Assembly: GCA_963669175.1 (NCBI GenBank)
Contig: OY769902.1
Coordinates: 1,743,515 to 1,807,514, forward strand
From: a bacterium
GTDB lineage: Bacteria; Electryoneota; Electryoneia; Electryoneales; Electryoneaceae
Reading direction: 5' to 3'
DNA: 64,000 bases
In this document: piece after piece, positions 817-55,427 of the stretch
Layout of the letters: every line of letters begins with the position of its first letter
Position numbering within the stretch: position 1 is the stretch's first letter
Position numbers and translations under genes: made by a program
The notes under the pieces: model-generated
The model's database searches: none
The model's input: only the letters and a program-made list of their open reading frames with translations
What the model was told of the DNA's origin: nothing

Positions 817-3513
817 CTAGAACTTGTACGTATACATCACCGAGAAGATGTAGTCATTGCGCTTATAATACGTGGGCTGAGGGATGGAATAACCACCATT
901 GATAACGGTTTCTTCCGTCATGTCAAACTTCTGACCGTTCCAGTATTCCCACTGACCATTTTCGGAGATGCTGGTAACACTCAAGTAGCCGGTAATAATA
1001 TGGTTGGGATAAAATTCATAGTCGACACCGGCTGCAAAATCAATCTGCATCATATCCACAATCTGGTATTTGATCGTGCCAGCCCTCAGCGCGGCAGCTT
1101 CCAGTGGATCCGTCGTTGTAAGGCCTGGATCTGTTTGGTTGATCAGGCTTTCACCACTGCCAATCAGTAAACGCGGACTGAAATATGGGACCAGTTTGCG
1201 GTTCAAGAACAAGAACTCAATCCTCGGCGAGAAAGTGAAGTAGTTGATGTCAGTCTCGCCGTTGCTTGCGGTCTGTTTGGCATTGGAAATCGCCAGTATA
1301 GTACGATATGGTCCGGGATACTCTGTTCCAACCTGGAATGCAAGAACAAACTGGTCGGCATCACTATCCGCCTGGTACTCATTGCTGCGATTGGACGTTA
1401 TCACGTTCAGTGAAAGCTGATGGTCAAGGTTACCGGTCTGGAGCCTGTAGGCGGCGCCAACATTGATCAGATTGTTGGTCAACGATTGACGTGTGTCAAT
1501 AATCGTCGCGGAATCAATCGGCGCATTATCGTAGGGGAAAATGGCCGTTGAATCACCATCATTTTCAAAAAGCTGGTGCCGGTAGGTCACGTTGAAATCG
1601 GGATACCGTGGATCGGTGTACAAATTCACCCCTACCATGATCTCGTTGCGATCAAGCGTCAAATCACTCTTGTCGTTCACATTGTTCTGGTAGTGAGAAT
1701 ACCCAAGGTTCAGGTACAACTTGCTGTTGAGCATGCGAATCCGGTCACGGACGTAATATCCTGCTTCGTCGTTGTACATGGAAGGATTACCCAGCGTAAT
1801 GTAGCTGGTGTTAATCTTCCTGTAGCCGATGCGCAAGTCGTTGAACAGGTAGCGTAGTCTCAGCTTGGTGTCGTAGGAAAGAGAATTGGCTATGATGGAC
1901 TTGGCAACGTCTTCAGCCTTGATCGTCGAACCTGTGCTGTCCTCAGACAGCCCATCGTCCGGCAAAGGCTGGAAATACGAGTTGATCCAGATGATGTTTT
2001 TGTAGTTTTTCAATTCACTGAAGGCTTCTTCATACGTATTGTCGTTGTAAAGCGACATCGCAACGCTGGTTGACCATACGATTCGGCGCCGGTCAAAATT
2101 CATATCCAGGTTCAAACCTGACACCACGTTGTCTTTTGGCGTTGCGCCCGTATAGGTCGTGCGGGCGTATAAACTATCAAGATTTGTTATATAGGCCAGA
2201 TCACCAGCATCCGGAAGTCGATCCAGGTATACAGAGTTCCGAACGTCTACCACTTTCATTGCAGTATAGCCGAAATCGACACGGTCCTTGAATCCCAGGT
2301 TACTCGAGATTTTCACTGCGGACAGCATACGTCGGAATGTGCCGGTGTTATTAATGGTTCTTTGCACATTATAGGACGTGTCCGGGACCACATTGGAGCT
2401 GTCAATACTCATGGTCACCGTGCGCTGCTGATAACTGAGGCCGCTAACGTGGCGGTACATCTCGCCATAAACAGCATATACATTTATCGGGCCTGGTTTA
2501 ATGGCCAGCTCGATACCGCGCACCCGGCTGCCATAAAGAACCAGTTCATTGTACTTGGGGTTCACATCACCGACACGCAGCCGCCACCATGGCATACCCA
2601 TGGAGAACAGGAAACGATGTTGCGGCTGGAGGGAAGAATGTTCCTTGCTGGTAAAACGACCCCGCGCAACAGCGTTGAATTTTCCGGCTTTGAAGGTGAT
2701 GGAGAAGGCTTCATTGCCGTAACTTAATCCTTGTTCCGAATATTGGCTTGCCACACCTTCACCGCTGACAAAACCGGTGACATATTTTCTGTACCCGGCC
2801 CGGCTTTCACGTTCCGCTGGCGATACCATGTTAAAGAACCAGGTGCTTAACACCTCCCGACCAGAATCTGTCTGGTGGAACAGGTCAATCCTGTGTCTGC
2901 CGGGTGTCATATCACTAATGACAGCAGTAAGCACTTCAGCGCTGATCATGGCTTCACCGGTTCTATCCTTACCGTCTACGTGAAGAACGATCCGCTGCGG
3001 GTCGATTTGTCCGAGAGCGTTGTTAAAAGCCAGGGCGACCAGGACTTCACTTCCCATGATGGACTTGCCCTGTTCCGGACTGATGATCAGGATCTGGGTG
3101 TTGGTGACTTCGTCGCCGGTTCCCTGGATGGATACCAGAACCGGGTTTACATCACCATTGTCCGGGTACGTAATCGTTGTCCCGTCATTGAATTCCATGG
3201 CGATGTAGTATTCCATCCCCACAGAAACAACTTCTCTACCGGGAATTGCCGCGGAGTAGGTATTCCCCGCAAGGTCCATCTCCACGTAATCGTACGATTC
3301 TTGGTCAACATTTCGGTACCACAGGTAGGCTAGCGATACCTGGTTGACATCGTAATCACCGGCCACACGGGCTTCGACATTAATGGGACGTCCCATTTCG
3401 CCGAATGTAACGGGTGAATGTTCAATGTAAACAACAGCGTTTGTGCCGGCTAATGCCATAAATGGCAGACCAATCACGCAGGCAACAAGAAAAACACGGA
3501 GAGCATACTTCAT
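817..3513 (-). CDS. large outer-membrane beta-barrel protein with N-terminal soluble domains (function unknown)
   Basis: About 900 aa. Signal peptide MKYALRVFLVACVIGLPFMALA at the ATG at 3513 (track start 3567 is TTG). Alternating hydrophobic/aromatic pattern through the C-terminal two thirds, ending in aromatic ...YTYKF as in OM barrels. No TonB box or plug recognised. Last gene of a minus-strand cluster. Confidence 0.6.
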   Translation of the reverse strand: MKYALRVFLVACVIGLPFMALAGTNAVVYIEHSPVTFGEMGRPINVEARVAGDYDVNQVSLAYLWYRNVDQESYDYVEMDLAGNTYSAAIPGREVVSVGMEYYIAMEFNDGTTITYPDNGDVNPVLVSIQGTGDEVTNTQILIISPEQGKSIMGSEVLVALAFNNALGQIDPQRIVLHVDGKDRTGEAMISAEVLTAVISDMTPGRHRIDLFHQTDSGREVLSTWFFNMVSPAERESRAGYRKYVTGFVSGEGVASQYSEQGLSYGNEAFSITFKAGKFNAVARGRFTSKEHSSLQPQHRFLFSMGMPWWRLRVGDVNPKYNELVLYGSRVRGIELAIKPGPINVYAVYGEMYRHVSGLSYQQRTVTMSIDSSNVVPDTSYNVQRTINNTGTFRRMLSAVKISSNLGFKDRVDFGYTAMKVVDVRNSVYLDRLPDAGDLAYITNLDSLYARTTYTGATPKDNVVSGLNLDMNFDRRRIVWSTSVAMSLYNDNTYEEAFSELKNYKNIIWINSYFQPLPDDGLSEDSTGSTIKAEDVAKSIIANSLSYDTKLRLRYLFNDLRIGYRKINTSYITLGNPSMYNDEAGYYVRDRIRMLNSKLYLNLGYSHYQNNVNDKSDLTLDRNEIMVGVNLYTDPRYPDFNVTYRHQLFENDGDSTAIFPYDNAPIDSATIIDTRQSLTNNLINVGAAYRLQTGNLDHQLSLNVITSNRSNEYQADSDADQFVLAFQVGTEYPGPYRTILAISNAKQTASNGETDINYFTFSPRIEFLFLNRKLVPYFSPRLLIGSGESLINQTDPGLTTTDPLEAAALRAGTIKYQIVDMMQIDFAAGVDYEFYPNHIITGYLSVTSISENGQWEYWNGQKFDMTEETVINGGYSIPQPTYYKRNDYIFSVMYTYKF

Positions 3514-3689
3514 GCGGCGCCCCTGGTATAGTTCGTGGTTCCTTCCGGTCCCTCCCTCAGAATTCAAATGTAGAGTGTTGGCAGAAGCAACCTCAACATT
3601 ATCAGGAGACCCCGAACAGAAAATACAGCCCGCCGGCCTTGCCGGCGGGCTACAGGAAGTCCGTAAAACTCAACTTGGTTTACAACTGA

Positions 3690-5771: not shown

Positions 5772-6908
5772 TCAATTTTTTCTACGACCTGATCCTTTCT
5801 TTTTAACTCTATTTAAAAACTCTGATATGCCATGATCTTGATAATATTTCCATGCTTTTCGATATCCTTTGCCATAAGCCGGATCATCATTTTCTTCAAG
5901 CTGATCCAAATGATAGTCTGCGAGTTTACTGTGAATGGATTCCAGCATAATTCGCATGGCTACATTTGCCGAGCCTTCCCGCCAGTCGGCATGGCCGCCG
6001 TCCGCATCATTCTCGTGTTGCCAGACATGAAAAAGCTCATGTGCGGCAACACCGGATAACATATCACGCGGGAGACCATAAAGAAAATAGATTGTTGTAT
6101 CTTCACGAATAACTCTTCCATTCATTGTCTCCGAGTGAACCGAGTGCAGCCCATTGGCATCACCTTCGCCGCCATGCAATTCATGTAATTGATTTTTATC
6201 AACAAGGACGATGCTGATGTCATCCAGGCTGGTGTTGAATCGGATACCGTTGGCTTCCAGCACCGCAGCGGCTTCACGGACAATCTGAGCAGCCTTCCCG
6301 GCGTCGGTGACTTCCGTTTCACGGCAGACTTCACACTGAATACGTCCATCCGCCAATTTCCAGGCGTGTCCCGGCAGAGCAAAACGTCCGCAAGAATCAC
6401 ATAATTCAACCTGGTCCTTATACTCGGCGCTGATCGTGGTTCCCCACCAGTCCGTTACATAGGGACCGAGAATAGGCTGGCCGGTGATAGCGCAAATCGG
6501 GGCAAGGTTCTCTACATAACACGATTCATGATACACCTTGCCATCAATGGTGAAGTATTTGTCCGATACAGGTGCGCCACACCATTCACAACGCGGCGAG
6601 AACTCATGGTGATAACAATCGGGGTGATAAAATTTGCCCTTGTGTTCGATATAGCTGCCATCGATACGAAACCCGCAGGCGGCGCATTTGAAGCATTCCG
6701 GATGAAAGTATTTGCCATTGGCTTCGATGTACTGGCTGGTGATTACTTTACCGCATCCGGCACAGCGTACCCTCTGTGCCAGGGCATGGGTCGGTAATAC
6801 AATCAAGCCAACTGCAGCCGGTGTCACCACACGAACAAATCGCCTGCGATCCCACTTTTCGGCATCGGCTCGACATGTTCTCTCTGTGCTGTTCTTTTTG
6901 CAAGCCAT
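5772..6908 (-). CDS. LIM-type double zinc-finger protein fused to an HExxH zinc metallopeptidase (DA1-like architecture), Tat-like signal
   Basis: N-terminus has an RRRF twin-arginine-like motif followed by a hydrophobic stretch and ALA-Q. Then C-x2-C-x16-H-x2-C-x2-C-x2-C-x19-C-x2-H, which fits the LIM consensus, followed by a second C-x2-C-x16-H-x2-C unit and CDSC...CEVC. C-terminal region carries HELFH (HExxH). Confidence 0.6.
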   Translation of the reverse strand: MACKKNSTERTCRADAEKWDRRRFVRVVTPAAVGLIVLPTHALAQRVRCAGCGKVITSQYIEANGKYFHPECFKCAACGFRIDGSYIEHKGKFYHPDCYHHEFSPRCEWCGAPVSDKYFTIDGKVYHESCYVENLAPICAITGQPILGPYVTDWWGTTISAEYKDQVELCDSCGRFALPGHAWKLADGRIQCEVCRETEVTDAGKAAQIVREAAAVLEANGIRFNTSLDDISIVLVDKNQLHELHGGEGDANGLHSVHSETMNGRVIREDTTIYFLYGLPRDMLSGVAAHELFHVWQHENDADGGHADWREGSANVAMRIMLESIHSKLADYHLDQLEENDDPAYGKGYRKAWKYYQDHGISEFLNRVKKKGSGRRKN

Positions 6909-7019: not shown

Positions 7020-7634
7020 AGCAATCAGCCTGCTTCAGCAGGCTCTTTTTAGCACCCGGCTGAAGCCCTGTCTCTTGCTCACATCTTCGTGTTTCTGCCA
7101 CCCCAGAGGGGGTGGTATATTTTAGTGTAGGGTTGACGCTGTCTGTTTAGCGTCTACCCTACGAAAAAGATCAAACCTTATCTCAACCCTGGAAGGGTTG
7201 CATAACGTATAATTTACACCCAATTGGTTTGTATAGAATATAAAATGCGTTATTTCCTGTATTTATTGAACGTACTAATATGAATCGCGTATTATGCAAC
7301 CCTTCCAGGGTTGATTATTCGTTAGAATACCTGACATAGTGTACAGGCCAAACAGACGGCCTGTACACTATGCTAAAATAGGGAATCCCGCCGGGATTCT
7401 AAAAATGCTATGTCCACAACTCTTTTACTGATACAGCTTTCAGAAGATGTGAGTAAGAGACAGGGCTTTAGCCGGGTGGATTAGTGTAACTAAATAAAAG
7501 AGCGCGCTTTAGCGTGCTTGCTTGAACAACAGATTGCTGTTTTGGAAAGCACCCTGAAGGGCGCTCGATATAGTTGTTATCTTTGTCCCCCGGCTAAAGC
7601 CGGGGGCTAAGGGGAGCAGGCTAAAGCCTGCTAA
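7020..7634. mobile_element. composite MITE-like element (repeat family A, long copy) with nested inverted repeats
   Basis: Termini agcctgcttcagcaggct-ctttttag-cacccggctgaagcc (left) and cccccggctaaagccggggg-ctaagggg-agcaggctaaagcctgct (right) are inverted relative to each other. The same termini bound the 210-bp copy at 40126..40336. An internal segment at 7497..7585 matches the reverse complement of 40195..40275. Further nested IR pairs at 7050-7095/7425-7475 and 7190-7215/7285-7310. Confidence 0.5.
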
Positions 7635-7855
7635 TACTAATGGATAGAACCCCCTTGAGGCGAATACTTATGGATAGAATTCCCTTGAGATAGTAAACGG
7701 AAAGAAGCGCTTTTCAGAAACTGTGATAGAAGACAGATGTTTCGGCGAGAATAACTTTCGCTAATCTGAAGCCGCAAGAACTTCCGAGAATACCATACGT
7801 GGAACATATCCATTGTGACACGGTACAAGTTTCAGGACGAAAACAGGCTGGATTC

Positions 7856-9808
7856 ATGCGTAACGATAGATATACATATTTGTTGATTATTTCCCTGCTG
7901 GCTTTCTCCTTTTTCCCACTGGAGAAATCAATAGCACAATCCCGCAATGTTGTGGTTCCTCGATCCCAGCAGACAGAAGAAATCCGTCAGGAAGCGACCA
8001 GGAAAAGCCGTACCGCTACCAGGCTTGAGCAAAGAGGGCAAATCGACGAGGCGTTGGCAATCTGGGATTTACTGGCGGACCAATTTCCCGACAACAGCTC
8101 CTATTTTGAAGGGCAGGTGCGTTGCCTGACCACGTTGGCCAGGTATAATGAAGCTGCAAGGTTACTGGAAGAGCGGATACCGCTGGAGATAGACCAGCGC
8201 CAGAAAGCGGAATACCTGGTGCGGCTTGGCGGGGTGTACCAGAAACTGAACAAACCGACCCAGGCCGAGGTCAATTACCGTCAGGCCGAGGAGACCGCTC
8301 GAGGGGTGGAAGGCGCTTATCATGCGGTGGCCATGGAGTTTCTGCGTCAACGTCAAACAGAGCGGGCGATTAGCATTTTAAAGTCTTCGCGAGTTGATCT
8401 CGAGAACCCCTATTTGCACGCGTTTACCATCGCATCCCTGAAACAGAATACCATGGACTGGGCCGGAGCGACCGAAGAATACCTGTTGGCGCTCCAGGAA
8501 AGCGGCACACGCAGGCAATCCGTCCTGCGGTCTTTTGCCACTTTCCCCAACGATCCGAATACGGATAAAGCTGTTGAGGCCAGCATTCGTGCGGAGCTGG
8601 ACCGTACCGAGAAGGAGCAGCCCTGGCCCGGGTATCGAGACGCTCTGTGGCAAATCCTGATCGATCAACGGATCAAGAGCGGCAATTTTGAAGGCGCTGT
8701 GGATCTGCTGGAAACAATCCAGGAGGAAGAGGGCGAAGAGGGCTGGCTGCTTCAGTTCGCCCAGACAGCCGTAGACGAAGGCGCGCACGATGCTGCCAGA
8801 CGTGCGCTGGAGATAGCAGCGCAACGCACGCAAAGTGAAAATCGACGCGCTGAAGTTGATCTTGCCCTGGCGACCCTGGTGCAAGCAGAAGGCGATTTCT
8901 CGCAGGCGGACAGTTTGTATGGCACTGTTATCGGAAGGCTGGAGAAGAATCCTACCCTGGCTTATTCAGCCCTGATCCGGCGTGGACAGATGCGATTGAC
9001 GTATGTCGATAATCCATTGGGGGCGTTGGAAGATTTCGAACACCTTGCCGAATTGCAGGGTAAGCAGGTGGAGCAACAGGTTGAGTACCTGCTGGCTGCC
9101 ACACTGCTTCGTCTGCACCGGTATGATGAAGCGCGTCCACATCTGCAACAGACGATTTCGCCCCAACTTCCTGACGAGCCTCAGCGCGGAAGAAGACGTC
9201 CAAGGCAACCGGTTGCCTACGATGCCGGACTGGGCGCTCATGCCGCGTATCTGAATGCACGGTTATCATGGTGGGAGAACAACCCGGAACGAACAACCGC
9301 TATCCTCGATAGCATGCTGAAGCATCCCACCGGCGCAGAAGTGGAAAACGAAGCGTTTGACCTGCTTTTCCTGCTGAGCAGTAAAGCGGATTCAAGTATT
9401 CTCCGTCGATTTGCACAAACAGACCAGGCATTGTTTGAACAACGAGTAGAAGATGCGGAGAACATGCTCGCGTCCATTGCTACGGACACCGCATCATCCT
9501 TGTCCGCAAACGCTTCCTGGTGGCTGGTGGAAATCGCTGTGCAGACCGGGGCGGAGGATGTCCCGGAAGTTGTTGACGCTTATGTCACGCAGTATCCGGG
9601 CACCCCGCGTGCAGAAGAGGCATGGCTGAACCTGGGAATCTGGTATGAGGATCAGGGCTTGACTGATGAAGCGAAAACCTGCTATGAAACGATACTTATC
9701 GACTATTATGACGGCCTGCTGACCTCGGAGGCACGATTGCGCCTGGATCAACTGGCGGGAATGGAACTGCCGCCCCTGCAACCACCTTCGCCTTTTGAGA
9801 CGCCGTAG
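7856..9808 (+). CDS. tetratricopeptide-repeat (TPR) protein with N-terminal signal/anchor
   Basis: ATG at 7856 gives MRNDRYTYLLIISLLAFSFFPLEKSIA (signal-like). The rest is alpha-helical with repeated A/L/Y/E-rich 34-residue periodicity typical of TPR arrays. Track start 7799 is GTG. Confidence 0.6.
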   Translation: MRNDRYTYLLIISLLAFSFFPLEKSIAQSRNVVVPRSQQTEEIRQEATRKSRTATRLEQRGQIDEALAIWDLLADQFPDNSSYFEGQVRCLTTLARYNEAARLLEERIPLEIDQRQKAEYLVRLGGVYQKLNKPTQAEVNYRQAEETARGVEGAYHAVAMEFLRQRQTERAISILKSSRVDLENPYLHAFTIASLKQNTMDWAGATEEYLLALQESGTRRQSVLRSFATFPNDPNTDKAVEASIRAELDRTEKEQPWPGYRDALWQILIDQRIKSGNFEGAVDLLETIQEEEGEEGWLLQFAQTAVDEGAHDAARRALEIAAQRTQSENRRAEVDLALATLVQAEGDFSQADSLYGTVIGRLEKNPTLAYSALIRRGQMRLTYVDNPLGALEDFEHLAELQGKQVEQQVEYLLAATLLRLHRYDEARPHLQQTISPQLPDEPQRGRRRPRQPVAYDAGLGAHAAYLNARLSWWENNPERTTAILDSMLKHPTGAEVENEAFDLLFLLSSKADSSILRRFAQTDQALFEQRVEDAENMLASIATDTASSLSANASWWLVEIAVQTGAEDVPEVVDAYVTQYPGTPRAEEAWLNLGIWYEDQGLTDEAKTCYETILIDYYDGLLTSEARLRLDQLAGMELPPLQPPSPFETP

Positions 9809-9811
9809 AGA

Positions 9812-9860
9812 AGTGAAAAACGTAAAGAAAGTGAAAAAGGTGAAAAAAGTGAGAAGCGTA
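9812..9860. repeat. phased 9-bp GTGAAAAAN tract (repeat family D)
   Basis: gaagtgaaaaacgtaaagaaagtgaaaaaggtgaaaaaagtgagaag directly after the TPR stop codon. The same periodic motif recurs at 54475..54540. Confidence 0.4.
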
Positions 9861-14245: not shown

Positions 14246-14480
14246 GTACATTGTATGGTTGAAAGCAAAGAGATGGAAAAAGGGGACTGCCTCCTTTCCC
14301 TGGAGTAAAACTATCCCACTGTGAACATGGACCGGGAAAGGTGGCTGTACCCTTTTCCTTGCGAGCAGGCAAGTAGTCCATGGAAAAGGGTACAGTTTCC
14401 TTTTCTGCAAGTTCAGCGAGAGTGTTTTGTGCGAGCATGAAGAAAAGGATTCCGTCCCCTTTTCCTGACAGCATGTCTAT
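14246..14480. repeat. repeat family B, copy 1 (about 235-bp hairpin-rich element)
   Basis: Shares roughly 80-90% identity with 35414..35663 and 44698..44962. Built from four imperfect palindromic modules of GGAAAAGG...CCTTTTCC type. Short ORFs inside differ in length between copies. Confidence 0.6.
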
Positions 14481-15591: not shown

Positions 15592-16308
15592 ATGAACCTG
15601 TCAGACTTGCAGTCGCAACAACCTGTAATTACCCGTGAACAAGCGGAAGTTCAGATCAGGGCATTCATCAACAAGGTTTACGGCTGGATGGCGCTTGCCC
15701 TGATTCTGACGGGATTTGTCGCGTGGTGGGTGGCGAATGATTTGGCGCTGGCACGTTTTATCGCCAGCAACAACTTCATCTTTTACGGTTTGTTGATCGG
15801 CACTCTTCTGATGGTGGGCGCGTTGTCCGGTTGGGTTCACCGGATGTCGCCGGTTACCGCGATTGCTGTATTTATGGGCTATTCGGCGTTGAATGGCGTA
15901 CTATTGAGTTTCATCTTCCTCGTTTATACGAAAGAATCGATTGCCTCCACATTTTTTATTACCGCAGGCACTTTTGCCGTGATGAGCGTGTACGGGTTTG
16001 TCACCAAAACAGACCTCACCCGCATCGGAAACCTGTTGTTCATGGCCCTGCTTGGATTTCTACTTGCCAGCCTTGCCAATATCTTCTTCCACAGCGAAAC
16101 ATTGTACTGGGTGACTACCTATGCAGGTATCCTGATCTTTGTCGGTTTAGTGGCTTATGACACCCAACGGTTGAAGATGATGGCGTTGGGTACTGTCAAT
16201 GATGAAGACATGATGACCCGGGCATCGGTTATCGGTGCGTTGCGGCTGTACCTGGATTTCATTAATCTGTTCCTGTTGCTGCTTCGTATTTTCGGACGGC
16301 GGCGGTAG
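15592..16308 (+). CDS. Bax inhibitor-1/YccA (TMBIM) family membrane protein
   Basis: Seven hydrophobic segments. Conserved ...LVAYDTQRL... motif near the C-terminus. RBS GGGGAGGGG before the ATG at 15592. Confidence 0.8.
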   Translation: MNLSDLQSQQPVITREQAEVQIRAFINKVYGWMALALILTGFVAWWVANDLALARFIASNNFIFYGLLIGTLLMVGALSGWVHRMSPVTAIAVFMGYSALNGVLLSFIFLVYTKESIASTFFITAGTFAVMSVYGFVTKTDLTRIGNLLFMALLGFLLASLANIFFHSETLYWVTTYAGILIFVGLVAYDTQRLKMMALGTVNDEDMMTRASVIGALRLYLDFINLFLLLLRIFGRRR

Positions 16309-16384
16309 TGAAACGATCCTACTAAATCGGTCTACGTTGGAAGCTTTACGTCGTCAGGTCACACGCATGAAAATCGTATGCGCA

Positions 16385-16564
16385 AGACCTGACGAAACTG
16401 GCGCTGCATTAGACCTGACGAATCTGGCGCTGCATTAGACCTGATGAAACTGGCGCTGAATTAGACCTGATGAAACTGGTGCTGCATTAGACCTGACGAA
16501 ACTGGCATGGAGTAGACCTGACGAAACTGGCGCTGCATTAGACCTGACGAAACTGGCATGGAGT
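16385..16564. repeat. tandem array, 7 copies of a 25/26-bp unit (agacctgacgaaactggcgctgcatt)
   Basis: Seven head-to-tail units with a few substitutions; two units end in ggcatggagt. No spacers, so not CRISPR. Lies between the BI-1 gene and a small OMP gene. Confidence 0.85.
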
Positions 16565-16673
16565 AGAATCTGACCTAGCTTGTTGTGTCGGGTCTTGAGA
16601 CGCGAAGCGGATTGTGACCCGACACCGCGCGATTGGGTTATTGACGAGTCAATTCAAAAGATTCTCCGGGGTG

Positions 16674-17348
16674 ATGATGAGAAAGCTACTGGCAGGATTG
16701 CTGTTTCTTGTTGTGTATGTATCGTCCACGCTGGCTCAACCCTATGCCAAAGGAAACTGGCTGGTTGGCCCGGCGATTGGCGATATCGCGTTGGGGGGAT
16801 TTGAATCCCAGATTGATTCAGCGACAACCACAACAACCCTGCTGACCGGCGTACTCGGTGTCAAACTGCAATGCCACAGCGGGCTGTTTGTCGCAAAGAA
16901 ACTGAACATCGGCCTGCTGCTGGATTACAATACCTACGCGGAAGAATCACAGCCTGACCCCGATCCCACCAACATGGAAATCACGGATGGGTGGGGAGAA
17001 ATCCTGATTGGATTGTACGCGCGATACTACATGCCAATTGCGGAACGGTGGGCAGTGTACCCGGAAATCGCCATCGGTTGGGGGGGGTACCAGAGCCTAT
17101 CACTGGTGAACAGCACAGCCATGGCGGAACAGAAAACAGAGGTAATCGCACGTGGTTTCGCAGCGAATGTGACTATCGGAGCCGGGTATTTCTTCAGCGA
17201 GCAGGTCTCTCTCGATTTTTCCATCAACTATGGGCTGGGGCAGTTAACCGGTGAACGGAATGTTTCAGGCAGCAATCAACAGGATATTACCATCACCCTG
17301 GCGGATGTGGATTTCCTGATCGGGGCGACCCTGTTCTTCGGCGATTGA
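16674..17348 (+). CDS. small outer-membrane beta-barrel protein (putative)
   Basis: Signal peptide MMRKLLAGLLFLVVYVSSTLA. Alternating hydrophobic beta-strand pattern. About 225 aa. Confidence 0.45.
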   Translation: MMRKLLAGLLFLVVYVSSTLAQPYAKGNWLVGPAIGDIALGGFESQIDSATTTTTLLTGVLGVKLQCHSGLFVAKKLNIGLLLDYNTYAEESQPDPDPTNMEITDGWGEILIGLYARYYMPIAERWAVYPEIAIGWGGYQSLSLVNSTAMAEQKTEVIARGFAANVTIGAGYFFSEQVSLDFSINYGLGQLTGERNVSGSNQQDITITLADVDFLIGATLFFGD

Positions 17349-19402: not shown

Positions 19403-19665
19403 GACGATGATGATACCATGCTGAAAGGTCGCAACCTGATCCTTGCGGGTGATGGGGGATCGTTCAGCATTTTGTATTTTGTATGTGAAGACTGAGTATA
19501 TGTTCTTCATATGTCATCCCCGACTTGATCGGGAGAACTCCTTCCGTTAGTCAAGGGAGTAGATTTACGGTTGTACTTCGTAAACCGCAAGCTTACGGTT
19601 CCCGCCTTCGCGGGAATGACGCAACGGAATACGCCAACATTGGGATTTTGACTTTGTCACCCGCG

Positions 19666-27995: not shown

Positions 27996-28030
27996 CTCGC
28001 TCTCCCTTTTTAGATCCACTCACAGGCTTA

Positions 28031-28065
28031 ACAGGATAATAGGATGAAAGGATTTCAAGGATGAT
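28031..28065. promoter_or_regulatory. (AGGAT)n direct-repeat module upstream of dapB
   Basis: acaggataataggatgaaaggatttcaaggat. The same module occurs upstream of dapA (29714..29746) and glnA (31408..31447). Confidence 0.35.
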
Positions 28066-28118
28066 TCTTATGGTTAAAAGTTGAAAAGTTATAATGTTAT
28101 AAAGTTATTCGAGCTAAC

Positions 28119-28158
28119 GAAAAACAGGGACTGACCCATCGTAGTCTGTCCCGTTTTT
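28119..28158 (-). terminator. bidirectional intrinsic terminator after the AT-rich orphan gene
   Basis: aaaaacagggactgac...gtctgtcccgttttt: GC stem flanked by an A-tract and a T-tract. Confidence 0.45.
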
Positions 28159-28253
28159 CGCAACTAAATCTGATCCAGTCTCTAAACCAATGGATGTTTG
28201 GCCCGACTGCTCGCTGTCGGGTTTCAGCTATCAGATAGTCAGCGTGAGATACA

Positions 28254-28661
28254 CTAATCCTTGTACCGATAGAAAGTATGGGCATAATCAGAAGACATGG
28301 AAGACTCAATAATTTCCTTTTCATTTGGTTTTAAAGGATCGGGATTTTCAAAATTCATTGAAACAAGAAAATCCTTTGATAAGACTAAACCATCAACAGG
28401 CATATTTACATCATCCTTAATACGTCGCGAAAGCCATAGCGCAATTTGTTGTGCTAAGGATGTTTCTTCGCCAATATTTCTTCCACCAGTCTTGTAAGGG
28501 CAAGCAAAAAAGGCCTCTTTGTATTGAATCTTAAACAATATCGCTATCTGATATGCCGATAACATTATATATTTTCCCAAGTGAGGTTGAAGTGGATTTT
28601 TATGTTGTTTTAATACCTCGATGATTTTTTCGCCAACCTGGTAATCTTCCCACCAACTCAT
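28254..28661 (-). CDS. hypothetical protein encoded in an AT-rich islet
   Basis: 135 aa from ATG 28661, with a strong RBS (AAGGAGGG) 5 nt upstream. Local GC is clearly lower than the flanking dapB and dapA. No recognisable domain. Confidence 0.5.
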   Translation of the reverse strand: MSWWEDYQVGEKIIEVLKQHKNPLQPHLGKYIMLSAYQIAILFKIQYKEAFFACPYKTGGRNIGEETSLAQQIALWLSRRIKDDVNMPVDGLVLSKDFLVSMNFENPDPLKPNEKEIIESSMSSDYAHTFYRYKD

Positions 28662-28788
28662 ACTTCCCTCCTTGTTTCGTTTATCCAAAATTGTTGTTTA
28701 GTAATATTATTACAATACACTAAAAATGCAATATTTAACGAGGCTTCATTTAAGTAATTATAATGTCTGAAAGAGATTAATTCGCTGG

Positions 28789-29682
28789 TCAGCTTGCAAC
28801 TAACGATAGTTCTCGCAATACAGCCAAAATTACTTCTTCCGATTCGGGACGGATTGGCGCCAGTGGCGGACGTACAGTCCCAGCGGGCAGGCCCATTTGA
28901 TTCAAAGCAAACTTGGCAGGGCCGGGGCTGGTTTCGATGAACAGCGCTGAGACCAGGCTGGCAAAACTACGATGTAACTTGTACGCTTCCACATCGTTAC
29001 CGTCGTTTTCCAGCTCCCACTGTTTCACGACCAGTTCTGGGACGATGTTGGACAGCACACTGACCGTGCCCGAGCCACCGATTTGCCAGATAGGCAGGTT
29101 CTGACCGTCTTCGCCGCTGAATACTGTAAGCTCATTACCAACACGCCAGATCAGATCCCATATCTGGGTCAGGTCGCCGGATGCTTCCTTTATGGCAGCT
29201 ATCGACGGAATCTCCATCAGTCGTTCTGCCGTCGCGGGTTTCAAGTTCACACCAGTGCGTCCGGGCACGTTATATACCATGATCGGAATCTCCGGTACCG
29301 CTTCGGCGATCATGGAAAAGTGGCGAACCAGTCCGTCCGGGGTCGGTTTGTTGTAATAGGGAGTGATGACCAGCGCGCCATCCACGCCCAGTTCATGAGC
29401 GCGTCTCGTGCGTTCGATACTCTTGACCGTATTGTTGGTGCCGGTGCCGACGACGATAGTCGCCTTGCCCTTCGCTTCACGCACGGCGATGCGGATCACC
29501 GTTTCCCACTCGTTCATGGTCATCGCAGGCGCTTCACCAGTGGTGCCACAGGGGACCAGTCCGTGAATACCCGCTTCCACCTGGCGCTTCACCAAGGCCG
29601 CGTACGCAGCTTCATCCAATGAACCATCTTCCCTGAACGGGGTCACTAACGCTGTAAAAACTCCCTGCCAGTCTACTCGCAT
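28789..29682 (-). CDS. dapA: 4-hydroxy-tetrahydrodipicolinate synthase
   Basis: GLVPCGTTGE motif near the N-terminus, TIM-barrel length, Schiff-base lysine region. Confidence 0.88.
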   Translation of the reverse strand: MRVDWQGVFTALVTPFREDGSLDEAAYAALVKRQVEAGIHGLVPCGTTGEAPAMTMNEWETVIRIAVREAKGKATIVVGTGTNNTVKSIERTRRAHELGVDGALVITPYYNKPTPDGLVRHFSMIAEAVPEIPIMVYNVPGRTGVNLKPATAERLMEIPSIAAIKEASGDLTQIWDLIWRVGNELTVFSGEDGQNLPIWQIGGSGTVSVLSNIVPELVVKQWELENDGNDVEAYKLHRSFASLVSALFIETSPGPAKFALNQMGLPAGTVRPPLAPIRPESEEVILAVLRELSLVAS

Positions 29683-29713
29683 GCTTCCACTCCCAATATC
29701 TTACCGCAGGACT

Positions 29714-29890
29714 CACAGGATAATAGGATGAAAGGATGCCAAGGATAACTGCACAAATATACTTAAAAGATAAAGAAAAGCAATGATACGATTAGAATAA
29801 TAAATGCTATTAATCAATAATATAATTTGTCACCCATAAAATGTGTTTTTATCCTTGAAATCCTTCTATCCTATCATCCTGTTAAGCCTG
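29714..29890. promoter_or_regulatory. dapA upstream module: (AGGAT)n array, AT-rich spacer, inverted (ATCCT)n array
   Basis: cacaggataataggatgaaaggatgccaaggat (29714..29746), about 100 bp of AT-rich DNA, then atccttgaaatccttctatcctatcatcctgt (29851..29882). Same architecture as the glnA upstream module. Confidence 0.4.
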
Positions 29891-29945
29891 TTTTGTATCC
29901 TGAATATCTGTTGAAATCCTGTTTATCCTGTAAATGCTTGCTCGT

Positions 29946-35413: not shown

Positions 35414-35663
35414 ATGGTTGGAATAAAGGATAAGGATATGGAAAAAGGGGACAGTTTCCTTTCCCTGGGGCAAAGCCTTCCCGCTGTGAGCATGGACCGG
35501 GAAAGGTGGCTGTACCCTTTTTCTTGAGAGCAGGCAGGACGTACACGGAAAAGGGTACAGTTTCCTTTTCCACAAGTTCGGCGAGAGTTTTTCATATGCG
35601 CGCGAGGAAAAGGATCCCGTCCCCTTTTCCCGGCAATCCTTATTATGTCGGAATAAAATCGAG
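35414..35663. repeat. repeat family B, copy 2
   Basis: Aligned with 14246..14480 and 44698..44962. Ends in ggaataaaatcgagaa as copy 3 does. Confidence 0.6.
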
Positions 35664-35772: not shown

Positions 35773-36045
35773 ATCCCCGGCTTCGACCGGGGATCTCGCG
35801 GGATATCGTGTAAAGCCCGTTTGGCACTACTTGTGCGTCGTGGTGTACGTCTAACAGTCGGGATACTGGTAGCGCAACCTCGAGATCCCCGTTCAAGCCG
35901 GGGATGACATGGGGATGGGGGATGGGGATGGGGGATGGGGATGACATGGGGATGGGGATGACATGGGGATGGGGTGGGGATGACATAGGGACTGGGGGAT
36001 GGGGATGACATGGGGATGGGGGATGGGGATGACATGGATATTGGG
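35773..36045. repeat. hairpin repeats (family C) plus G-rich heptamer tandem tract
   Basis: Hairpins atccccggcttcgaccggggat and gagatccccgttcaagccggggatgacat, followed by about 140 bp of GGGGATG/GGGGATGACAT units. The overlapping 173-aa minus-strand ORF is a low-complexity artefact. Confidence 0.7.
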
Positions 36046-36186
36046 AGGACGGATGGCCCGATGCACAGGTGACAATACTTCCATACCAAACGGAGCAGGC
36101 AAACTCTCACAAGAACAAGCCTTACCAGTTGTTCTTCGAGTGCGTCGGGATGAATGAAAAACAATACCTTATAACTTCAAATCAAA

Positions 36187-40125: not shown

Positions 40126-40336
40126 AGCAATCAGCCTGCTTCAGCAGGCTCTTCTTAGCACCCGGCTTCAGTCGGGGTGTTCATGGTGACAAAGAAATGA
40201 CGAGCGCCCTTCAGGGTGCTTTCCTGAATCAGGACTTGTACAAGGCAAGCACGCTAAAGCGCGCTCAGAATGATCTCCGCATCTTTACACCCCGGCTGAA
40301 GCCGGGTGCTAAAAAGAGCAGGCTAAAGCCTGCTAA
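40126..40336. mobile_element. MITE-like element (repeat family A, short copy) with terminal inverted repeats
   Basis: Left end agcctgcttcagcaggct-cttcttag-cacccggcttcagtcggggtg. Right end caccccggctgaagccgggtg-ctaaaaag-agcaggctaaagcctgct. Together these form a roughly 45-bp TIR around a 110-bp core. Termini match those of 7020..7634. Confidence 0.55.
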
Positions 40337-40342
40337 AATTGT

Positions 40343-40414
40343 CAGATAGCAGAATGAATTCAGATTGCAGAATGAATTCAGATTGCAGAATGAATTCAGA
40401 TAGCAGAATAAATA
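40343..40414. repeat. tandem array, 4 copies of an 18-bp unit (cagattgcagaatgaatt)
   Basis: Direct head-to-tail repeats immediately right of the MITE-like element. Confidence 0.8.
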
Positions 40415-44697: not shown

Positions 44698-44962
44698 GAG
44701 ATCCACTGTATGGTTAATGGTTAGAGGAAAGGAAATGGAAAAAGGGGACTGCCTCCTTTCCCCGGGGTAAAGCCTTCCCGCTGTGAAAATGGACCGGGAA
44801 AGGTGGCTGTACCTTTTTTCTTGAGAACAGGCTGGAATTATACGGAAAAGGGGATAGCTTCCTTTCCCACGAGTTCAGCTAGCGTTTTTTGTGTGAGTGC
44901 GAGGAAAAGGATTCCGTCTCCTTTTCCCGACAATCTCATCACAACGGAATAAAATCGAGAAT
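44698..44962. repeat. repeat family B, copy 3
   Basis: Directly right of the IS. Aligned with copies at 14246 and 35414. Confidence 0.6.
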
Positions 44963-54468: not shown

Positions 54469-54474
54469 CGGGAA

Positions 54475-54540
54475 GTGAAAAAAGTAGACAGTGAATAAAG
54501 TGAAAAAAGTAAAGAAGGTAAAAAATGTAAAGAAAGTCAT
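54475..54540. repeat. phased 9-bp GTRAAAAAN tract (repeat family D)
   Basis: gtgaaaaaagtagacagtgaataaagtgaaaaaagtaaagaaggtaaaaaatgtaaagaaagt directly after the cyclase stop. Confidence 0.4.
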
Positions 54541-54667
54541 TTGACGGGCAAGTGTGGCCCGATCCGCAAGTGACGTAACTTCCACTTTCCATTCAACAAC
54601 AATACTCCCACGACATCTCCATTCTATCCATACTCATGAGCGCATCGGGACGTGTCGTAAAGGTTGC

Positions 54668-54756
54668 AGGAAAAGGGGACTGTTTCCTTTTCGTTGCGCT
54701 GAGATATATGATTATAAATACAGGGGATCGAAAAGGGGACTGTCCCCTTTTCCATG
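54668..54756. repeat. repeat family B, partial/degenerate copy
   Basis: Two palindromic modules ggaaaaggggactgtttccttttc and gaaaaggggactgtccccttttcc about 50 bp apart. Confidence 0.45.
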
Positions 54757-55427
54757 AGACAAGGCTTCATCACTAACATGAGTCTGGATAAAGTTCTGTG
54801 TATTTGCCAAAGACTCGAAAGCTGCCACATTCCCGACTCACTCATAGTCGCGTCATGGATTGTCACTTCAGCACAGTACCCATCACGAACGACAGCGTCA
54901 GTTCCATCACGTACGAGTCGGGCCACCCGAGCTTGCTGCACAGGATAATGTCGTCGCCTTTGATCCGATGCGCTCAATGTTGCGTCACGTGGCATTGCTT
55001 CATCAGAGTATTCTTGAATCTGTCCACGAGGAAGCTATATCACTTGCGAGTCGGGCCACCCGAGCGGGGACTTGGGTATCCTGAACAAGGCCATCTCAAC
55101 TTAGCCTTCCTGGGTCAATGCGAAGTTCGCTGATTGACAACGCTACACATCCCGCAATCCAACCCTTTGAAAAGAATGGGCAGTCAAAATGCGAAGCGTG
55201 GTCAAGTTGAGGAATAGTGGGGAGATAGTGCTATCTGCATTGTTTTTAATTAGTTTCAATCAGCTTCAGCTTGAACTGACCAGACAGACTTCCCCCCACT
55301 TTTTCCACTAATTTCTTCTTACTTATGGATTCCTGACGAAATTTGATTATCTTATTAACACGGTGATTCTAGATTCTGCTTCGCATCGTTCGAGCAATTT
55401 CGGCACTCAACAACTGGGAGGGCCTGT

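Follow-up and report, generated by a model that had tools for sequence, protein, structure and literature searches.

A probable hairpin-seeded minisatellite between a Bax inhibitor-1 family gene and an outer-membrane protein gene in a barely sampled bacterial lineage

Analysing a stretch of bacterial DNA of 64 kb (the window in the following, which always means the whole stretch), we found that the seven head-to-tail units at positions 16385-16564 probably represent a non-coding intergenic minisatellite, which was seeded at a hairpin, grew by local tandem duplication and is neutral or near-neutral. The original prediction had offered iteron or centromere-like protein-binding sites on the one hand and a slippage-prone variable locus on the other; the slippage-prone locus proved to be the best fit, based on identical non-adjacent units, the duplication of a 51-bp block, the start of the array in the 3' arm of a hairpin and three arrays of like build in the same window.

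Structure and setting of the array

Direct reading of the sequence, a script and Tandem Repeats Finder (TRF) agree on seven head-to-tail units of 25/26 bp, as originally described. The units follow one another without spacers, start at 16385, 16411, 16437, 16463, 16489, 16514 and 16540, and are 26, 26, 26, 26, 25, 26 and 25 nt long, respectively. Two forms can be distinguished, an A form (AGACCTGACGAAACTGGCGCTGCATT, units 1-4 and 6) and a B form (AGACCTGACGAAACTGGCATGGAGT, units 5 and 7), and the predicted order A-A-A-A-B-A-B, with the variant 3' end GGCATGGAGT in two of the units, was found again. Unit 1 has the A sequence as given; compared with it, unit 2 carries A13T, unit 3 C9T and C23A, and unit 4 C9T and C18T. 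TRF reports a single array here (16385-16557, period 26, 6.7 copies, 89% matches), whose score of 283 is the highest in the window, and no strand is assigned to the array. The 17-nt core of the unit occurs seven times in the window with up to three mismatches, as compared to 0.17 expected occurrences; all seven copies lie inside the array, and this number was never reached in 100 shuffles. Head-to-tail copies of a unit of ~10-100 bp, in numbers well above chance, are a mark of minisatellites, and the array shows them by TRF as well as by the motif count; among the small variable segments of bacterial genomes, minisatellites form a class that is generally recognised (PMC2884548). Conservation within the unit is uneven. 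The first 8 nt (AGACCTGA) are invariant in all seven units and the 17-nt 5' part contains two variable positions only, whereas the 4-5 differences between B and A units all fall into the last 8-9 nt and none into the first 17, the 5' part being far better conserved than the 3' part. A CRISPR array, characterised by unique spacers of similar length, had been rejected before, and rightly so, since the units abut, the period equals the unit length and unique spacers are missing.

The array lies, as predicted, between a gene of the BI-1 family and one for a small outer-membrane protein (OMP). The first (15592-16308, + strand) encodes a Bax inhibitor-1/YccA family membrane protein of 238 aa (Pfam PF01027, E 1.2e-55), the second (16674-17348, + strand) a small beta-barrel outer-membrane protein of 224 aa with a signal-peptide-like N-terminus (PF13505, E 1.2e-7). 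The spacer between these two same-strand genes measures 365 bp (16309-16673) and not the 300 bp first given, and the array ends ~110 bp upstream of the OMP gene. The locus is situated in a housekeeping region of a 5.45-Mb contig: Pfam scans of 14 genes between 5.8 and 24.6 kb returned housekeeping or uncharacterised proteins only, among the neighbours being glutaminyl-tRNA synthetase, a PfkB kinase, release factor 1, PrmC, alanine racemase, an M20 peptidase, a GNAT acetyltransferase and a TPR protein. Neither a replication initiator, partition protein, recombinase or transcription factor within ~8 kb, nor an integrase or other mobile-element gene near the array could be found. In the same region, a 377-aa protein (5772-6908, - strand) combines a LIM domain (PF00412, E 8e-13) with a DA1-like peptidase domain (PF12315, E 1e-12), an architecture typical of eukaryotes, especially of the plant DA1 family, and unusual in a bacterium.

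Every unit contributes two + strand stops (TGA and TAG) and one on the - strand (TAA), so that stop codons rotate through the frames. All three + strand frames run into stops across the array, the longest open stretch on either strand comprises 42 codons, and no - strand ORF of at least 40 aa is listed over the array. A coding reading was therefore rejected, the period being no multiple of three and the stops rotating, and the non-coding character of the array is confirmed. It is also highly improbable that the array is an assembly artefact, in which the number of repeats or the variant units would have been mis-assembled. Tandem repeats are named as a known source of assembly error (PMC6868369), but the units differ by distinct substitutions in a structured A/B pattern rather than by errors of the homopolymer type, the 5.45-Mb contig comes from a near-complete assembly and single reads can span the array, since it is only 180 bp long.

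Flanking hairpins, array growth and other repeats of the window

Both edges of the array are marked by hairpins. Hairpin A (16351-16395, + strand), which starts 43 nt past the BI-1 stop codon, has 18-nt arms that are 83% complementary and 9 nt apart. In its 5' arm (TCGTCAGGTCACACGCAT), part of the unit recurs in inverted form, its 3' arm (ATGCGCAAGACCTGACGA) takes in the first 11 nt of unit 1, and the arms share a perfect match of 10 nt (TCGTCAGGTC/GACCTGACGA). It is the dominant stem in RNA as well as DNA folds (DNA fold -15.1 kcal/mol). At the other end, a degenerate eighth unit (AGAATCTGACCTAGCTTG; 16565-16582, + strand) can be aligned in register with the unit start and forms a decayed 3' edge, followed by hairpin B (16585-16625, + strand) with a perfect 10-bp stem (GTGTCGGGTC/GACCCGACAC), a 21-nt loop and a DNA fold of -13.1 kcal/mol. 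The two arms of hairpin B are similar to the unit core (GACCYGAC); this motif occurs eight times, in both orientations, within 16351-16625 and three times in the remaining window, with 3.9 occurrences expected window-wide. Between the 5' arm of hairpin B and the reverse-complemented core, 12 of 17 positions agree, a score that ~2 in 10,000 background positions attain, and the kinship of this hairpin to the unit is therefore of marginal significance only.

The distribution of variants over the units carries the traces by which the growth of minisatellites is commonly recognised, namely identical non-adjacent units, variants shared by neighbours and higher-order repeats. Unit 6 repeats unit 1 and unit 7 repeats unit 5 without any difference, and C9T is common to the adjacent units 3 and 4. 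Comparing pairs, units 4+5 differ from units 6+7 at 2 of 51 positions, and units 1+2 from units 3+4 at 5 of 52. The identical units and the near-identity of 4+5 and 6+7 therefore point to stepwise duplication, including that of a 51-bp double unit. Read in this manner, the mosaic would fit an older array in which the A+B pair at its end had been copied as one block of 51 bp, accompanied by duplications of single units; minisatellites usually acquire such mosaics through slippage or unequal exchange. The last unit, too, closes with the B-type 3' end, beside the decayed eighth one, and this end could equally well be former flanking sequence that was copied together with the 51-bp block. The approximately five substitutions within 180 bp reveal that the array is not very young, which counts against the minisatellite reading.

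Based on these observations, the following course of events can be proposed. The 3' arm of the hairpin just 3' of the BI-1 gene would have served as the seed, the hairpin presumably promoting misalignment in replication, and the array would have grown from there through repeated local tandem duplication, either by replication slippage or by unequal recombination. Copy number would probably vary between strains. Any effect of the array would presumably be indirect: it lengthens the BI-1/OMP spacer and might thereby determine at what distance and in what rotational setting the upstream signals of the OMP gene lie relative to the downstream ones, or, alternatively, it might form a portion of a long intercistronic or 5' untranslated RNA.

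The association with a hairpin is not confined to this locus. Three other TRF arrays with scores of at least 90 are present in the window (7633-7689, 35900-36037 and 40342-40413), and all of them have their start at or within a hairpin's 3' arm, so that the layout of a hairpin followed by an array is found in four spacers within 64 kb, with unrelated units; the array at 16385-16564 is the largest example in the window. The arrays at 7633-7689 (30 bp x 1.9) and 40342-40413 (18 bp x 4) are each preceded by the hairpin AGCAGGCTAAAGCCTGCT, which belongs to a dispersed 69-nt element being 80% identical at the two sites, while the arrays following it differ in their unit. The GGGGATG array at 35900-36037 begins in the 3' arm of the hairpin ATCCCCG-N7-CGGGGAT. 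Spacers in the window are generally long and crowded with hairpin repeats. We infer that hairpins in this lineage favour misalignment and yield tandem arrays on their 3' side.

Further repeats were observed in the window. The spacers 7020-7650 and 40126-40350 share clusters of short GC-rich hairpins (AGCCTGCTTCAGCAGGCT, CACCCGGCTGAAGCCGGGTG, GAGCGCGCTTTAGCGTGCTTGC and others) in partly inverted order, and each cluster directly precedes a tandem array of a different unit. The G-rich array of GGGGATG and GGGGATGACAT units, taken as a whole (35900-36055, ~150 bp), is capable of forming G-quadruplexes, and a related copy of its ATCCCCG-N7-CGGGGAT hairpin (35885-35905) can be found at 19511-19533 between the genes for RF1 and PrmC. 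A dispersed element of ~207 nt occurs at 14267-14473, 35432-35638 and 44729-44935, always in long spacers; its copies are 82-86% identical and made of hairpins of the type GGAAAAGGGGAC-N-GTTTCCTTTTCC, with related hairpins at 54667-54768, and the element would seem to be a family of this genome comparable to REP or MITE sequences. Arrays of the purine-rich 9-mer AAGTGAAAA and its variants (9804-9860 and 54473-54537) start within a few bases of the stops of two unrelated + strand genes (ends 9808 and 54468) and could be a common 3'-end signal. Finally, two 41-nt inverted repeats (28022-28062 and 29851-29891, 93% complementary) enclose ~1.8 kb with two - strand ORFs, and related 40-nt direct copies (GGATAATAGGATGAAAGGAT...) lie at 28025, 29709 and 31405, that is, every 1.69 kb. 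The repeats at 28022-29891 could belong to a mobile element, an invertible segment or the boundary of a repeated gene cassette.

Origin, protein-binding and RNA readings

Iterons typically are 17-22 bp long, exceptionally longer, and occur in two to seven copies together with DnaA boxes and an AT-rich unwinding element; Rep binds them cooperatively, and separating two iterons by half a turn abolishes this cooperativity (PMC4980987). Measured against this, there is scarcely any likelihood that we are dealing with the iterons of a replication origin or with a centromere of the plasmid type (parC/sopC-like), be it chromosomal or on an integrated element. Seven direct repeats are also the number of R6K, and an inverted partial copy of the unit lies near the array alongside the direct repeats; but the genes for rep, par, integrase or other mobile-element functions are absent from the neighbourhood, no DnaA box (TTATCCACA, up to two mismatches) was found in 16200-16700, and with a spacer of 50% GC and an AT maximum of 67% in any 30 nt there is no AT-rich unwinding region. 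Nor is the spacing that of iterons, which are set apart by integral turns: periods of 26 and 25 bp correspond to 2.48 and 2.38 turns (offsets of 171 and 137 degrees), and neighbouring units therefore come to lie on nearly opposite faces of the helix. The cumulative GC skew has no turning point at the position of the array. A replication origin (oriC) was accordingly rejected, DnaA boxes, an AT-rich tract and a skew turning point all being missing there.

When compared with the plasmid iterons of R6K, RK2, F, P1 and pPS10, the array is alike in its several direct repeats of approximately 20 bp (seven in R6K), its better-conserved core with a variable remainder and the inverted partial copy nearby. 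It differs in lacking a rep gene, DnaA boxes and an AT-rich element, in its chromosomal housekeeping context, in a period of 25/26 bp, i.e. ~2.4-2.5 turns, instead of integral turns, and in having no similarity to plasmids. By analogy, the inverted core copies on both sides of the array might be seen as resembling the operators that flank iterons in some plasmids. As for centromeres, sopC of F consists of twelve 43-bp units and parC of R1 of ten 11-bp units, which hold or form dyad-symmetric sites and are located beside a parA/parB or parM/parR operon. The array shares with sopC and parC the spacerless tandem direct repeats in non-coding DNA, but its unit is without a dyad (apart from the self-complementary GCGC and TGCA, no inverted match of at least 4 nt was found per period) and no par operon adjoins it. 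Since the defining features of iterons and centromeres are lacking, the resemblance is only a formal one, consisting of direct repeats and an inverted partial copy. The iteron or centromere-like interpretation is thus disfavoured: neither Rep or ParA/B, DnaA box, AT-rich region or dyad, nor similarity to plasmids or phages was found.

A different function would be that of a putative protein-binding platform, on which a sequence-specific DNA-binding protein, for instance an OMP regulator or a nucleoid organiser, would recognise the AGACCTGAYGAA core at seven direct sites and at inverted partial sites in hairpins A and B. We regard this as rather unlikely. The 17-nt 5' part is far better kept than the 8-9-nt 3' part, GACCYGAC occurs eight times within 275 bp in both orientations, and a site 110 bp upstream of the OMP gene would suit regulation; yet no DNA-binding gene lies within ~8 kb, the unit lacks dyad symmetry, the remaining window shows no enrichment of the core, the core is missing upstream of the OMP ortholog in the only relative, and the 25/26-bp period puts successive sites ~140-170 degrees apart, while in the best-studied direct-repeat system a half-turn displacement abolishes cooperativity (PMC4980987). 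A conserved 5' part with a variable 3' end would also be expected of a binding core with a free spacer, but the conservation statistics, and with them the likeness to a binding core, go back to only about five mutational events. Going further, the seven direct and the flanking inverted AGACCTGAYGAA copies could be imagined as a putative nucleoprotein site, in which the gain or loss of a unit would switch the OMP gene on or off by rotation, because each unit adds ~2.5 helical turns. This idea and the broader one, that the hairpin-3'-arm arrays in the four spacers reflect a lineage-specific repeat-generating mechanism and not ordinary slippage, are, taken jointly, unlikely. Very unlikely, too, is an inverton with the inverted core copies as recombination sites, since the segment between these copies consists of the repeats themselves only.

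The array may well be transcribed, either as the intercistronic region of BI-1 and OMP or as an OMP leader. No sigma-70-like promoter and no intrinsic terminator were detected in 16150-16800 in a scan covering sigma-70-like and not FCB-type promoters, and promoter hexamers compared by eye with the units reach at best 7 of 12 matches. With no sigma-70-like promoter between the array and the OMP start, transcription may start upstream and read through the array; both genes are on the same strand. This leads to the question whether the array is itself a transcribed RNA element, located in the intercistronic region or in a long OMP 5' UTR, in which hairpins A and B would act as terminator, attenuator or stabilisers and to whose reiterated units a small RNA or an RNA-binding factor would bind. 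We consider such an element distinctly unlikely. The + strand of the spacer folds slightly more stably than its shuffles (z -2.2, as compared to -0.56 for the - strand), but this extra stability is due to the flanking hairpins A and B, the units themselves form no consistent structure, and an Rfam family match is lacking even at E up to 10. In the window, no Rfam 15 family reaches its gathering score, and the region 16250-16720, searched at E up to 10, yields two chance-level matches only (E 1.9 and 6.1). No T-run follows hairpin A on its 3' side, and the intrinsic terminator scan was negative there as well. A hammerhead-like reading of CUGAUGAAAC was tried and rejected, since a stem II is missing between the two core motifs and Rfam gives no hit.

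Relatives, comparison with known repeats and meaning

A search for the unit beyond the array gave no second site in the 64-kb window (17-nt core, up to three mismatches). Among 185,579 species genomes, the 17-nt core has 112 single hits in unrelated taxa, which is close to chance level, with ~70 expected (our own estimate, for 596 Gb and both strands), and neither an array nor more than one core copy per locus was found in them. Two adjacent units were absent from JGI metagenomes, as were relatives of the OMP, and from viral contigs, and a comparison of the 301 bp around the array with 72,556 plasmid and 50,697 phage records revealed no similarity. Based on the lack of matches in genomes, metagenomes, plasmids and phages, the array is, within public data, confined to this genome. 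Roughly one third of the single hits of AGACCTGACGAAACTGG fall into metagenome-assembled genomes (MAGs) of Acidobacteriota, mostly Acidobacteriaceae and Terriglobales, suggesting that the 17-mer is part of a conserved gene there, unrelated to the array.

The host itself is poorly represented. Proteins of the window are singletons in a collection of 15 billion proteins; the OMP is identical to one database protein of 224 aa and has only one other relative (61% identical), and exact-protein look-ups of BI-1, OMP and the downstream hypothetical protein for strain variants retrieved nothing on record. The nearest genome, MAG GCA_964648415.1 (glutaminyl-tRNA synthetase 82%, OMP 61% identity), shows no synteny; a type IX secretion C-terminal domain is encoded in it. 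Among named relatives, Zixibacteria come first for the glutaminyl-tRNA synthetase (69%) and Bacteroidota for BI-1 (55-58%), the best BI-1 relatives being at most 62% identical. From these affinities, we infer that the host probably belongs to a barely sampled FCB-group (Zixibacteria-like) lineage. In the MAG, no BI-1 gene is located upstream of the OMP ortholog, and the 827-bp spacer preceding it contains unrelated repeats and no array core; next to the best BI-1 relative (62%) lies a convergent histidine kinase gene. The spacers of a contig of this MAG (3084-3590 and 9418-9836) are full of tandem and dispersed repeats with units of 40-43, 171 and 206 bp and the common motif CTCATTCCAGCGAAGGCGGGAATCCAGG, the 827 bp preceding the OMP ortholog being one of these spacers, and its short contigs end beside repeat-filled regions.

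Among known repeats, the array is comparable to bacterial minisatellites or VNTR loci, as used in MLVA typing or known as mycobacterial MIRU, in its head-to-tail units of tens of bp in the spacer of same-strand genes, its non-coding nature, variant units and higher-order duplications and its species-specific sequence. VNTR loci are, however, defined by polymorphism between strains, whereas the present array is known from one genome, and fusion to a hairpin together with flanking inverted partial copies is not general in VNTRs. REP/BIME of enterobacteria and the small dispersed repeats of cyanobacteria (both mentioned in PMC2884548) are likewise intergenic, associated with hairpins, sometimes clustered in tandem and found in genomes with hairpin-rich spacers; the unit of the array, in contrast, is neither palindromic nor dispersed, having no other copy in the window or the searched collections. 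A third group is formed by contingency loci, such as the heptamers in the hmw promoters of Haemophilus influenzae or the TAAA repeats upstream of nadA in Neisseria, whose known units measure 1-7 bp and slip at high rates. A repeat tract upstream of an outer-membrane protein gene is common to both, the position 110 bp upstream fits, and one unit more or less would shift promoter geometry by about half a helical turn, but the units here are of 25/26 and not 1-7 bp and the promoter is a putative one.

As it stands, the array matters little: it adds another intergenic minisatellite specific to its species, which could at most serve for strain typing in a poorly sampled lineage. It would matter more if its copy number proved variable and tuned the expression of OMP, or if the link between arrays and the 3' arms of hairpins held genome-wide; in the latter case, repeats in this lineage would seem to arise by a mechanism of their own.
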